From Escherichia coli (GTDB lineage Bacteria > Pseudomonadota > Gammaproteobacteria > Enterobacterales > Enterobacteriaceae), in assembly GCF_017348835.2 (NCBI RefSeq), contig NZ_CP071375.1: a DNA stretch of 64,000 nt, one strand, 5' to 3'. Below are positions 9,532-47,087 of the stretch, piece after piece. A model generated the notes under the pieces. The model did not search any database, was not told the DNA's origin, and worked only from the letters and a program-made list of their open reading frames with translations. The first letter of the stretch is position 1, and every line of letters begins with the position of its first letter. Position numbers and translations under genes: made by a program.

Positions 9532-11942
9532 TTGCACGCTGGTTCTGGCGCGAATGGCGTTCGCCGTCGCTATTAATTGTCTGGCTGGCGCTAAGCCTGG
9601 CGGTGGCCTGCGTGCTGGCGCTGGGCAATATCAGCGATCGCATGGAGAAGGGCTTAAGCCAGCAAAGCCGTGAGTTTATGGCGGGCGATCGGGCGTTGCG
9701 CAGTTCGCGCGAGGTGCCGCAAGCGTGGCTGGAGGAAGCGCAAAAGCGCGGCCTGAAAGTCGGCAAGCAGCTGACTTTCGCCACGATGACATTTGCAGGC
9801 GACACACCGCAGCTGGCGAATGTCAAAGCGGTGGATGATATCTACCCGATGTATGGCGATCTGCAAACCAATCCCCCCGGCCTGAAACCACAGACGGGCA
9901 GCGTATTGCTGGCCCCACGCCTGATGGCACTGCTTAACCTGAAAACAGGCGACACCATCGACGTGGGTGATGCCACTTTGCGGATTGCCGGAGAAGTGAT
10001 TCAGGAACCGGATTCCGGTTTTAACCCCTTCCAGATGGCTCCGCGTCTGATGATGAATCTGGCGGATGTCGATAAAACCGGAGCCGTGCAGCCGGGGAGT
10101 CGGGTCACCTGGCGCTATAAATTCGGCGGCAGCGAGAACCAGCTCGACAGCTATGAGAAATGGTTGTTACCTCAGCTTAAACCCGAACAACGCTGGTACG
10201 GTCTGGAACAGGACGAAGGCGCGCTGGGGCGATCGATGGAACGCTCGCAACAGTTCCTGCTGCTTTCGGCGCTTCTGACCTTGCTGCTGGCAGTGGCAGC
10301 AGTGGCGGTAGCGATGAATCATTACTGTCGCAGTCGCTACGATCTGGTGGCGATCCTCAAAACGCTGGGGGCAGGGCGAGCGCAACTGCGTAAGCTAATC
10401 GTCGGTCAGTGGTTGATGGTGCTGACGCTTTCAGCCGTTACCGGCGGGGCGATAGGCCTGTTGTTCGAAAACGTGTTGATGGTGCTGCTCAAGCCCGTTC
10501 TGCCTGCTGCACTACCGCCAGCCAGCCTCTGGCCGTGGCTATGGGCGCTGGGCACCATGACGGTCATCTCGCTGCTGGTGGGGCTACGACCATACCGCTT
10601 GTTGCTGGCAACGCAGCCTTTACGCGTATTACGTAATGATGTGGTAGCGAACGTCTGGCCGCTGAAGTTTTATCTGCCGATTGTCAGTGTGGTGGTTGTG
10701 CTGCTGCTCGCCGGATTAATGGGGGGCAGTATGCTGCTCTGGGCGGTGCTGGCGGGCGCGGTAGTACTGGCTTTGCTATGCGGTGTGCTGGGCTGGATGC
10801 TGCTGAATGTACTTCGCCGCATGACGCTGAAATCGCTGCCTCTGCGCCTGGCGGTTAGCCGCCTGTTACGTCAGCCGTGGTCAACGTTAAGCCAGCTTTC
10901 GGCATTTTCGCTCTCCTTTATGCTGCTGGCACTGCTGCTGGTGTTGCGTGGCGATCTGCTCGACCGCTGGCAGCAGCAGCTACCTCCAGAAAGCCCGAAC
11001 TACTTTTTAATTAACATCGCCACAGAACAGGTAGCACCGCTAAAAGCGTTCCTCGCGGAACATCAGATAGTCCCGGAATCGTTTTATCCGGTGGTGCGGG
11101 CGAGACTGACGGCGATTAACGGCAAGCCGACAGAAGGCAATGAAGATGAGGCGCTCAATCGCGAACTCAATCTTACCTGGCAAAATACGCGGCCCGATCA
11201 TAATCCGATTGTCGCCGGTAACTGGCCGCCAAAAGCCGATGAAGTGTCGATGGAAGAGGGGCTGGCGAAACGCTTAAACGTTGCCCTCGGTGATACCGTG
11301 ACTTTTATGGGCGATACCCAGGAGTTCCGCGCTAAAGTGACCAGCCTGCGCAAAGTGGACTGGGAAAGTCTGCGGCCTAATTTCTATTTTATTTTCCCTG
11401 AAGGGGCATTAGACGGGCAACCGCAGAGCTGGCTTACCAGTTTCCGCTGGGAGAATGGCAACGGCATGTTGACGAAACTCAACCGCCAGTTCCCTACCAT
11501 TAGCCTGTTAGACATTGGCGCGATTTTAAAACAGGTCGGTCAGGTGCTGGAGCAGGTAAGTCGGGCGCTGGAGGTGATGGTGGTGCTGGTCACCGCCTGC
11601 GGTATGTTGCTGTTGCTGGCACAGGTGCAGGTGGGAATGCGTCAGCGTCATCAGGAGCTGGTGGTGTGGCGCACACTCGGTGCGGGGAAAAAACTGCTGC
11701 GTACCACGTTGTGGTGTGAGTTCGCCATGCTTGGGTTTGTTTCCGGCCTGGTGGCCGCAATTGGTGCGGAAACGGCACTGGCAGTGTTGCAGGCGAAAGT
11801 GTTTGATTTTCCGTGGGAGCCAGACTGGCGATTGTGGATTGTTCTGCCGTGCAGCGGTGCGCTGCTGCTGTCGCTTTTCGGCGGCTGGCTGGGTGCGCGA
11901 CTGGTTAAGGGTAAGGCGCTGTTCAGGCAGTTTGCGGGGTGA
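9528..11942 (+). CDS. ybbP: FtsX-like ABC transporter permease YbbP
   Basis: 804 aa; duplicated FtsX-type membrane domains; start overlaps ybbA stop. Confidence 0.9.
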   Translation: MIARWFWREWRSPSLLIVWLALSLAVACVLALGNISDRMEKGLSQQSREFMAGDRALRSSREVPQAWLEEAQKRGLKVGKQLTFATMTFAGDTPQLANVKAVDDIYPMYGDLQTNPPGLKPQTGSVLLAPRLMALLNLKTGDTIDVGDATLRIAGEVIQEPDSGFNPFQMAPRLMMNLADVDKTGAVQPGSRVTWRYKFGGSENQLDSYEKWLLPQLKPEQRWYGLEQDEGALGRSMERSQQFLLLSALLTLLLAVAAVAVAMNHYCRSRYDLVAILKTLGAGRAQLRKLIVGQWLMVLTLSAVTGGAIGLLFENVLMVLLKPVLPAALPPASLWPWLWALGTMTVISLLVGLRPYRLLLATQPLRVLRNDVVANVWPLKFYLPIVSVVVVLLLAGLMGGSMLLWAVLAGAVVLALLCGVLGWMLLNVLRRMTLKSLPLRLAVSRLLRQPWSTLSQLSAFSLSFMLLALLLVLRGDLLDRWQQQLPPESPNYFLINIATEQVAPLKAFLAEHQIVPESFYPVVRARLTAINGKPTEGNEDEALNRELNLTWQNTRPDHNPIVAGNWPPKADEVSMEEGLAKRLNVALGDTVTFMGDTQEFRAKVTSLRKVDWESLRPNFYFIFPEGALDGQPQSWLTSFRWENGNGMLTKLNRQFPTISLLDIGAILKQVGQVLEQVSRALEVMVVLVTACGMLLLLAQVQVGMRQRHQELVVWRTLGAGKKLLRTTLWCEFAMLGFVSGLVAAIGAETALAVLQAKVFDFPWEPDWRLWIVLPCSGALLLSLFGGWLGARLVKGKALFRQFAG

Positions 11943-11958
11943 TGACAGGTGTTAGATT

Positions 11959-12057
11959 GCCTGATGCGCTACGCTTATCAGGCCTACGAAGAGCGTGCAA
12001 TATATTGATTTTGCAAGATTGTGTAGGCCAGATAAGGCGTTTACGCCGCATCCGGCA
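11959..12057. repeat. REP elements downstream of ybbP
   Basis: gcctgatgcgctacgcttatcaggcctac and tgtaggccagataaggcgtttacgccgcatccggca. Confidence 0.65.
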
Positions 12058-12159
12058 TGAACAGTGTGCATTTTGGCAATAAATCTGAAACCAACTGTCA
12101 TGTCGGTTTTTTTAAAGGCCGAAGGTGGTAAACCTTCGGCCTTAGCTACGTTTCCTCAG

Positions 12160-12243
12160 TTATTCAATAAACTGACGGATCAGTTCCAGCAGCGCGATTA
12201 GCGCCTTAAGAACGATGAGAACTTTATCGAGAAAAGTTTTCAT
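12160..12243 (-). CDS. candidate 27-aa hydrophobic peptide (type I toxin-like): MKTFLDKVLIVLKALIALLELIRQFIE
   Basis: ATG at 12243-12241 preceded by GGGAG 6 nt upstream; SD lies in palindrome CTCCCttaaGGGAG (12250-12263); TAA stop followed by GC hairpin ggccgaaggtttaccaccttcggcc; not in ORF track (below 60 aa). Confidence 0.35.
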   Translation of the reverse strand: MKTFLDKVLIVLKALIALLELIRQFIE

Positions 12244-12380
12244 CCGTTGCTCCCTTAAGGGAGAAAGACAATCACAGCTTACCCTTACGTTGCCTGTAAC
12301 TATGATTTTCTTCATGTGCTAGATGAGGAATGTTTCATTTCTGCCCGGAACCACCAAGTCTTGGGCGGAAAAAATAAAAA

Positions 12381-12406
12381 AACCGACTGTCATGTCGGTT
12401 TTTTTA
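12381..12406 (-). terminator. hairpin plus U-run downstream of mnmH (A-run/T-run flanked, likely bidirectional)
   Basis: aaaaaaaccgactgtcatgtcggttttttt: stem ccgac/gtcgg, loop tgtcat. Confidence 0.5.
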
Positions 12407-12468
12407 TATCTGTATTCTGGTGCAACCATTCTGTTCTCACGACAATCGCCGTTTCAGAATACCGCCCA

Positions 12469-13578
<1,110 letters not shown>

Positions 13579-25370: not shown

Positions 25371-25490
25371 CCCTTACCTTTAAAGCGGATGCGATTTATA
25401 TCGCATAAGAGTGCAGTACTCATGCCGGATGCGGCATGAGTACCATATCCTTCCTGAAAATCGCGCAAATTCTATATATTGCAGAGATCA

Positions 25491-25521
25491 TGTAGGCCTG
25501 ATAAGCGAAGCGCATCAGGCA
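25491..25521. repeat. REP element
   Basis: tgtaggcctgataagcgaagcgcatcaggca. Confidence 0.6.
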
Positions 25522-25528
25522 ATGTTAC

Positions 25529-25555
25529 AAAAAAAGCCACGGTATAAACCGTGGC
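25529..25555 (-). terminator. intrinsic terminator downstream of ylbA/allE
   Basis: Minus-strand reading gccacggtttataccgtggc followed by TTTTTTT. Confidence 0.6.
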
Positions 25556-25597
25556 AAAATCCAACATAGCTAAAAATAATCAGGCGAGTGGTATGAC

Positions 25598-47010: not shown

Positions 47011-47087
47011 GCGCCCTTAGCTCAGTTGGATAGAGCAACGACCTTCTAAGTCGTGGGCCGCAGGTTCGAATCCTGCAGGGCGCGCCA
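47011..47087 (+). tRNA. argU: tRNA-Arg (anticodon UCU)
   Basis: 77 nt gcgcccttagctcagttggatagagcaacgaccttctaagtcgtgggccgcaggttcgaatcctgcagggcgcgcca; cloverleaf with anticodon loop cuUCUaa. Confidence 0.95.

Follow-up and report, generated by a model that had tools for sequence, protein, structure and literature searches.

A short open reading frame (ORF) with a hairpin over its ribosome-binding site lies between ybbP and mnmH in a 64,000-nucleotide stretch of Escherichia coli DNA (assembly GCF_017348835.2, contig NZ_CP071375.1; hereafter the window, with positions counted from its first nucleotide), and it raises the question of whether this is a type I toxin gene and whether such a gene could still be expressed here. 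An inspection of the nucleotides without database searches (the sequence-only reading) had proposed a TisB-like type I toxin with its Shine-Dalgarno (SD) sequence sequestered in the hairpin. By homology, the ORF is a dinQ-like ("dql") gene and encodes the toxin of the DinQ/AgrB system, present here as a second, accessory copy on the chromosome; the system is known from K-12 (Weel-Sneve 2013, PMC3567139; Kristiansen 2016, PMC5066626). The copy in the window has lost its promoters together with leader nt 1–111 of the toxin mRNA, and is quite probably a recently disarmed, silent relic of that second copy, with the toxin ORF still intact.

Identification of a second DinQ/AgrB locus

An ATG at 12243 on the minus strand begins a 27-codon ORF that ends, stop codon included, at 12160 (12160–12243) and translates as MKTFLDKVLIVLKALIALLELIRQFIE, just where the sequence-only reading had placed it. 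RefSeq names exactly this ORF "damage-inducible type I toxin DinQ" (WP_349808740.1), and the corresponding coding sequence is the same ORF, between ybbP and mnmH, in strains PE164 and R32_14_1F; the sequence-only reading had implied a new element while allowing that the region might turn out to be a known annotated one, as it did. The 27-residue peptide passes the NCBIfam toxin_DinQ model NF041472 (40.9 bits against a cutoff of 30, E = 1.8e-10) and fails the DqlB model NF041473 (24.5 bits against a cutoff of 35), and the profile search returned these two models alone. BLASTP aligns it to K-12 DinQ with 15 of 19 residues identical (E = 3e-8). The proposal of a type I toxin is borne out by this family match, together with the homology of the hairpin to dinQ stem-loop SL5 set out below.

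The longest in-frame ORF at this position has 51 residues (12315–12160, minus strand) and is annotated in place of the 27-residue form in some RefSeq records; public protein databases name both versions DinQ, each on at least 1000 contigs. The longer frame was rejected as the true product, as alignment puts the K-12 start close to the internal ATG and the SD sequence stands directly 5' of 12243.

At the DNA level, K-12 dinQ and plasmid dinQ/dqlB genes can be aligned to the locus over the toxin leader, ORF, and terminator. A tblastn search of plasmids with the 27-residue peptide returned no match, probably owing to the short query or the low-complexity filter; a nucleotide search for distant matches did find 1845 similar plasmid records, annotated as dinQ or dqlB. 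Since the canonical dinQ-agrA-agrB locus sits elsewhere, between gor and arsR, the copy in the window is a second, accessory one.

The antitoxin half of the module is also recognizable. The Rfam model RF02891 matches positions 12319–12407 on the plus strand (52.6 bits against a gathering score of 40, model positions 1–84 of 84), in a body assigned to 12318–12407 that lacks a promoter and folds far better than expected by chance (z = −5.88). This match adjoins the toxin ORF and starts within the interval covered by the sequence-only reading, which had overlooked it, as it had the 51-residue frame and the deletion junction described below. With a DinQ profile match, a homologous leader carrying an SD hairpin, and an AgrB small RNA (sRNA), the DinQ/AgrB type of the locus is not in doubt, even though the allele is truncated: leader elements 1 and 2 and SL2, which form the switch and contain the processing site, are absent from the window and present in the intact reference allele (L002).

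The peptide resembles K-12 DinQ in being a hydrophobic 27-residue chain with the core (I/L)DK..IVL.ALIALLELIR. It departs from K-12 DinQ in its ATG start, three additional N-terminal residues, and a DqlB-like C-terminus, QFIE. The dql genes dqlA and dqlB are known from Enterobacteriaceae chromosomes and plasmids (Kristiansen 2016, PMC5066626), and DqlB/AgrB of pOXA-48 was validated in 2025 as an addiction module in which AgrB base-pairs to the 5' untranslated region (UTR; PMC12365149). Leader and peptide signature place the ybbP copy in the same family, and the C-terminal ELIRQFI(D/E) is common to both; however, DqlB peptides have 31 residues, with a 7-residue insertion (AVAALAN-like) that the 27-residue peptide lacks, and the ybbP copy is chromosomal, whereas that of pOXA-48 is on a conjugative plasmid.

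Deletion of both promoters in the window allele

Most genomes with the module carry 186 bp that the window lacks. In intact alleles, a 16-nt repeat occurs twice, 186 bp apart (positions 3238 and 3424 of L002), once as the AgrB target site in the toxin leader and once as the AgrB 5' end. The AgrB-like RNA's first 16 nt and the base before them (TGCTAGATGAGGACTG) recur exactly, in direct orientation, on the plus strand opposite toxin mRNA nt 109–124. The window retains a single hybrid copy, TGCTAGATGAGGA(C>A)TG, at 12317–12332, which comparison with the intact alleles identifies as the deletion junction; everything between the two TGCTAGATGAGGACTG repeats is missing.

Lost with the deleted segment are the agrB promoter and, on the toxin side, the −10, the transcription start, leader elements 1 and 2, and SL2. 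Of a toxin mRNA of 327 nt, nt 1–111 are gone, and the leader is kept from nt 112 onward: the retained 3' part of the 5' UTR (12244–12329, minus strand; mRNA nt 112–197) contains the SL4 equivalent and element 3, CUUUCUCCC. A simple promoter scan of 11900–12600 found no σ70-like site on either strand, so that the window copy lacks toxin and antitoxin promoters of its own, both of which the intact allele has within the deleted 186 bp. The loss of promoters and leader also sets the window copy apart from K-12 dinQ.

The sequence shows that the 16-nt AgrB 5' end recombined with its direct repeat, the target site in the leader, which removed the 186 bp and left a promoterless toxin ORF, with an SD hairpin deprived of its opener, fused to a promoterless AgrB body and flanked by terminators on both sides. 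Because both promoters, mRNA nt 1–111, and the element that opens the SD hairpin are deleted, the toxin is probably silent, and the activity implied by the sequence-only reading is not supported for this allele; toxicity or ribosome-profiling signals are unlikely in this strain for the same reason.

The 186-bp-deletion junction is rare, with 4 carriers (PE164, F2_81, Res13-Lact-PEA12-26, and GF3-3) among 5426 complete E. coli genomes. Over 3.9 kb, the closest matches to Res13-Lact-PEA12-26 are intact alleles (99.9%, then 99.6% identity) spanning 186 bp more, and neither the window type nor GF3-3 is among its best 15 matches. The closest non-identical relatives of the window are likewise intact (99.0%), with GF3-3 farther away at 98.8%. 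These data suggest that the junction probably arose more than once, on at least two backgrounds.

Intact allele and the proposed switch

The toxin gene of the intact allele is homologous to K-12 dinQ and to six plasmid dinQ/dqlB genes from the −10 through the terminator. Its −10, TACAAT, aligns with that of K-12 dinQ (TATGAT); the alignment places the transcription start 7 nt past this −10 and predicts an mRNA of ~327 nt. The four-element switch published for dinQ (PMC5066626) is recognizable in this allele as in K-12, with element 1 (CUGCCUC) at mRNA nt 14–20, element 2 (GGAGAGAGGCAG) at nt 100–111, element 3 (CUUUCUCCC) at nt 174–182, and element 4, the SD sequence GGGAG, at nt 187–191. In the minimum-free-energy fold of the full intact RNA, the 5' end pairs with the element 2 region and the SD hairpin is closed, and the same is predicted for the K-12 +1 dinQ RNA, in keeping with the long 5' stem and closed hairpin in the structure published for the latter.

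The mechanism suggested for the intact allele is drawn by homology from K-12 dinQ and pOXA-48 dqlB. A ~327-nt toxin mRNA would be made from a σ70 promoter (−10 TACAAT) without a LexA box. Element 1, at the 5' end, would pair with element 2, leaving element 3 free to close the hairpin on the SD sequence; the full-length RNA would be translationally inert because of this closure. Processing at the 5' end would then allow element 2 to pair with element 3 and free the SD sequence, and the divergent 88-nt AgrB-like sRNA would pair at about nt 100–124, over element 2, so that the hairpin closes again. AgrB pairing probably also sets off RNase III cleavage, by analogy. The translated 27-residue peptide would insert into the inner membrane and depolarize it. 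For K-12 DinQ (PMC3567139) and pOXA-48 DqlB (PMC12365149), toxicity, inner-membrane localization, depolarization, and rescue by AgrB base pairing have been reported.

The 88-nt AgrB-like product of the intact allele has a near-consensus promoter (TTGAAT-17-TATAAT). Its predicted duplex with the mRNA spans about nt 100–124, with 19 contiguous base pairs and −57 kcal/mol for the 45-nt 5' part, and covers element 2; this pairing region corresponds to the K-12 AgrB target, G88–A119 of dinQ (PMC5066626). The arrangement is that of K-12, namely a divergent, non-overlapping AgrB sRNA with a 5' end that directly repeats, in the DNA, the target site, and with a homologous leader, SD hairpin SL5, and terminator on the toxin side. 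In the window, the AgrB body is preceded, 12 nt upstream, by a −10-like TATGAT (12301–12306, plus strand) with a poor −35, TTACCC, at a 16-nt spacing.

The ybbP copy differs from K-12 in having a single agr gene (agrA and agrB in K-12) and no LexA box. K-12 dinQ has a LexA operator, TACTGTATGATTATCCAGTT, over its −10, and the intact ybbP allele has no counterpart; a search for CTG-N10-CAG gave zero matches across the 6.5-kb intact ybbP locus, so that the operator expected of dinQ proper, a member of the SOS regulon, is missing there. In the absence of a LexA box, the name "damage-inducible" is probably wrong for the ybbP–mnmH copy, and it seems to have been carried over from K-12 dinQ by the hidden Markov model alone.

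Shine-Dalgarno hairpin and terminators

The palindrome described by the sequence-only reading, CTCCCttaaGGGAG (written out, CTCCCTTAAGGGAG, CTCCC-TTAA-GGGAG), is perfect and lies at 12250–12263. As minus-strand RNA (CUCCC-UUAA-GGGAG), it corresponds to pairing of elements 3 and 4 and, from folding and an eight-member comparison, is the homolog of dinQ SL5; its 3' arm, GGGAG (12254–12250, minus strand), is the SD sequence, 6 nt ahead of the ATG. Considered alone, the hairpin is within chance expectation (z = −1.49, with 17 of 200 shuffled sequences folding equally well). It is taken as real because it is homologous in the family, and not because of its fold statistics: an SD-containing hairpin occurs at the equivalent place in all eight DinQ-family mRNAs compared, with compensatory changes in its arms. 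The arms are CUCCAU/AUGGAG in K-12 and pSE228B, CUCCAG/CUGGAG in IncX3, UCCCUU/AAGGGA in IncI-gamma, and CUCCC/GGGAG at the ybbP–mnmH locus; the fifth pair is A-U in six members and C-G in the window locus and L012, and the sixth is U-A or G-C. For this comparison, each hairpin was extracted and folded separately, as MAFFT misaligned hairpins with variable loops. In dinQ, SHAPE and in vitro translation have established that SL5 prevents initiation (PMC5066626), and the SD sequence of the window copy is predicted to be paired in any RNA transcribed across the region (probability of being unpaired <0.05).

The G+C-rich hairpin that the sequence-only reading had noted past the stop codon is present, though its stem has 12 bp rather than 9. 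It occupies 12115–12143 on the minus strand, 16 nt past the stop, and is strongly supported by folding (−20.7 kcal/mol, z = −3.78, matched by 0 of 200 shuffles); folding and alignment to the K-12 and plasmid dinQ/dqlB terminators identify it as the toxin mRNA terminator, homologous to dinQ SL9. On the plus strand, a terminator-like hairpin with a run of seven T, AAACCAACTGTCATGTCGGTTTTTTTA, can be read at 12088–12114. The hairpin on its own folds weakly (−6.3 kcal/mol, z = −0.85) and the scan flags only a weaker minus-strand form; this element probably halts read-through from ybbP into the module. At the other end, the scan identifies an intrinsic terminator at 12374–12407 with a 14-pair stem and T runs on both strands, which is predicted to end AgrB on the plus strand and to block read-through from mnmH on the minus strand.

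These two flanking elements are related: the AgrB terminator hairpin, AAACCRACTGTCATGTCGGTTTTTTTA, recurs as a 27-nt direct repeat with one mismatch at 12088–12114 and 12380–12406, bracketing the module. Comparison with empty sites places both copies within the insert, so the cassette has its own insulators on both sides. The repeats were also considered as a target-site duplication and rejected; both copies are within the insert, and the only possible duplication is a 2-bp CA.

Expression of the window allele

Several observations weigh against reading the window locus as silent. The promoter scan is crude, having also missed the inferred toxin promoter of the intact allele. Weak read-through from mnmH, or through the terminators, is a possible source of toxin transcription, and the TATGAT at 12301–12306 could be a cryptic source of some AgrB-like RNA in the deletion allele. 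An intact toxin ORF fits a recent deletion but would fit continued use as well. Further, thermodynamic folding of 5'-truncated RNAs gave no opening of the SD hairpin, and even for the K-12 +44 RNA the SD sequence was just ~0.28 unpaired; the in silico argument for a permanently closed SD sequence is for this reason merely supportive.

An active toxin–antitoxin pair would be the main alternative, in which an unrecognized promoter or read-through drives transcription, the SD hairpin keeps the RNA silent, and stress releases it. The ORF, SD sequence, start codon, toxin terminator, and AgrB body are all intact, as such a pair would need, and the insensitive scan leaves room for an unseen promoter; however, the missing nt 1–111 comprise the transcript's start site, the region in which it is processed, and element 2, apart from which nothing is known to open the SD hairpin (PMC5066626), and both mapped or inferred promoters went with them. 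With a strong bidirectional terminator between the relic and mnmH, and an allele found in so few genomes, we regard continued activity as unlikely.

Less probable still, and in our view very doubtful, is that the residual AgrB-like RNA persists as an orphan antitoxin acting in trans on canonical dinQ or plasmid dql mRNAs, in an anti-addiction role. Its body and terminator are intact, it is predicted to form a duplex of −47.8 kcal/mol with K-12 dinQ mRNA (−69.4 kcal/mol for the cognate K-12 pair), and a different deletion allele, which removes only the toxin start and keeps agrB with its promoter, is found in about 139 genomes. In the window, though, the strong AgrB promoter is deleted and no σ70-like site passes the scan, and dinQ is not regulated by K-12 AgrA, whose mismatches are similar in number (PMC5066626; PMC8594479). 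That the ORF and hairpin are chance features of an intergenic region, as the unremarkable fold statistics of the SD hairpin and the dozens of nearby ORFs of at least 20 residues might suggest, is refuted by the homology results, namely the curated-model and pairwise DinQ matches, the AgrB covariance-model match, the DNA homology to dinQ/dql over leader, ORF, and terminator, and 95–100% identity in about 1300 genomes and Escherichia sp. E1V33.

Distribution and alleles at ybbP–mnmH

Relative to genomes with an empty site, the whole module is an insert at 12071–12454, of 384 bp in the window and 570 bp when intact. A megablast search with 12080–12420 found it in 1326 of the 5426 genomes (~24%), once in each and always on the chromosome, with dinQ as the annotated feature at the match; this accessory distribution differs from that of canonical dinQ, which is present in 5422 of 5426. 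Escherichia sp. E1V33 (NZ_RHJI01000019.1), a non-coli Escherichia and the sole species representative that a 33-nt probe matched exactly, has the module in intact form at the same ybbP–mnmH site, in a collinear 6.5-kb region of 95.6% identity. Because this genome shares the site, the insertion is either old or has been exchanged by recombination.

The ybbP–mnmH interval occurs in several further states. Empty sites read GTGCA|CAGAAT, with a variable number of repetitive extragenic palindromic (REP) elements (KE51, E57, and APEC E18006). Besides the intact 570-bp module and the 186-bp promoter deletion of the window, a third module allele has lost 108 bp between GATGAG(A/G)AC repeats (approximately window 12222–12329; AHB6, NMBU-W13E19, and 118UI); it lacks the toxin start codon, SD sequence, and most of the leader while keeping agrB and both promoters, and some copies are nonetheless called by PGAP as a 25-residue "DinQ" with an ATT start. 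The count of about 139 genomes given above for this allele refers to perfect junction matches. In K-12, an rhsD island takes the place of the whole interval from the ybbP stop to the selU (mnmH) stop, and a few strains carry IS621 or IS200C insertions. Junction BLAST counts were confounded by two partial pieces being joined as one place, and identity bands and long-query coverage classes were used instead; the counts for the 108-bp allele here and for short loci at gor–arsR below are therefore approximate.

Recurrent deletion at the canonical dinQ locus

The same class of deletion is found at the canonical locus between gor and arsR. When the K-12 AgrB target site and agrB are joined in silico as recombination would join them, the resulting junction is matched perfectly over 78 nt in FORC_082, EC2001, and PEC389; FORC_082 lacks exactly 430 bp, comprising the LexA box, dinQ promoter, agrA, and agrB promoter. 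Three length classes were distinguished: a full locus of 751 nt with nothing missing; one of 520 nt in which one agr gene is lost with the 231 bp between agrA and agrB; and a short locus of 322 nt, at 47% coverage, with the toxin leader fused to the agr body. Coverage of the 751-nt K-12 locus falls below 80% in 827 genomes (5422 − 4595), and the rows sampled from this range were of the 322-nt short locus, O25b:H4-ST131 among them. Alignment of the ST131 locus and that of an ST80 strain confirms the fusion of toxin leader to agr body and the loss of the promoter region. RefSeq retains the dinQ annotation at the deleted loci of FORC_082, the ST80 strain, and O25b:H4-ST131.

One deletion class occurs at both sites: as the 186-bp loss at ybbP–mnmH, and at gor–arsR as three exact junctions and roughly 830 short loci among 5426 genomes. 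The repeat shared by antitoxin and target appears to act as an intrinsic hot spot for deletion, at the canonical dinQ of major lineages as well. We somewhat favor the more general proposition that the pairing region, being a direct repeat that brackets both promoters, allows recombination recurrently to "self-disarm" DinQ-family loci in a single step that takes out toxin and antitoxin promoters at once. If so, a sizeable fraction of E. coli, a pandemic lineage included, would carry an annotated "dinQ" without its LexA-controlled promoter. In CRE10, which has a single agr gene at gor–arsR, the target site and the agr 5' end carry one and the same variant pairing sequence, GTTAGATAATGGCATTCTCACTCC; the shared variant suggests gene conversion or co-evolution of the repeats.

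What is reported here is for the most part already known: a decayed copy of an annotated gene from a known family, whose mechanism was established between 2013 and 2016. Mildly new is only that antitoxin and target repeats recombine recurrently and thereby remove the promoters, which also affects canonical dinQ in major lineages. Among the papers searched, none links dinQ to ybbP or describes these alleles or such self-disarming, which does not in itself prove novelty. The hot spot is relevant wherever DinQ is invoked in SOS-linked persistence or membrane phenotypes beyond K-12. In addition, the "damage-inducible" name has spread to a copy without a LexA box and to alleles lacking promoters or a start codon; surveys of dinQ presence or absence based on annotation overstate the number of functional loci, because promoterless and startless alleles bear the name.

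Relation to other type I systems

The family resembles TisB/IstR-1 in its small membrane-depolarizing peptide, an inert transcript activated by 5' processing, and a divergent sRNA that pairs in trans (PMC5066626). It is unlike tisB in that the latter uses a ribosome standby-site mechanism and has a LexA box, which the ybbP copy lacks. The likeness of the peptide to TisB suggested by the sequence-only reading was not upheld, and kinship was rejected: BLASTP gave no alignment, and no TisB family appeared among the NCBIfam matches. ZorO/OrzO and ShoB/OhsC also have an sRNA that lies 5' of the toxin gene, divergent and without overlap, and their long 5' UTR needs processing before translation (PMC8594479; PMC5397157); the DinQ toxin, however, belongs to another peptide family than ZorO and ShoB. 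Weak Rfam matches to OrzO-P fall on the AgrB terminator region (24.1, far short of the gathering score of 60).

Neighboring features

Downstream of ybbP, window positions 11950–12060 contain REP/bacterial interspersed mosaic elements (BIMEs), in which Rfam matches to ES036/CssrF and naRNA4/CssrE stay below threshold; the number of these elements differs among strains, with extra units in L005 and L015. Elsewhere in the window, Rfam matches above the gathering score lie at 25525–25591 (plus strand), 25457–25499 (plus strand), 3386–3463 (minus strand), and 47011–47084 (plus strand) and comprise the STnc480 sRNA, ES036, naRNA4, and one tRNA.

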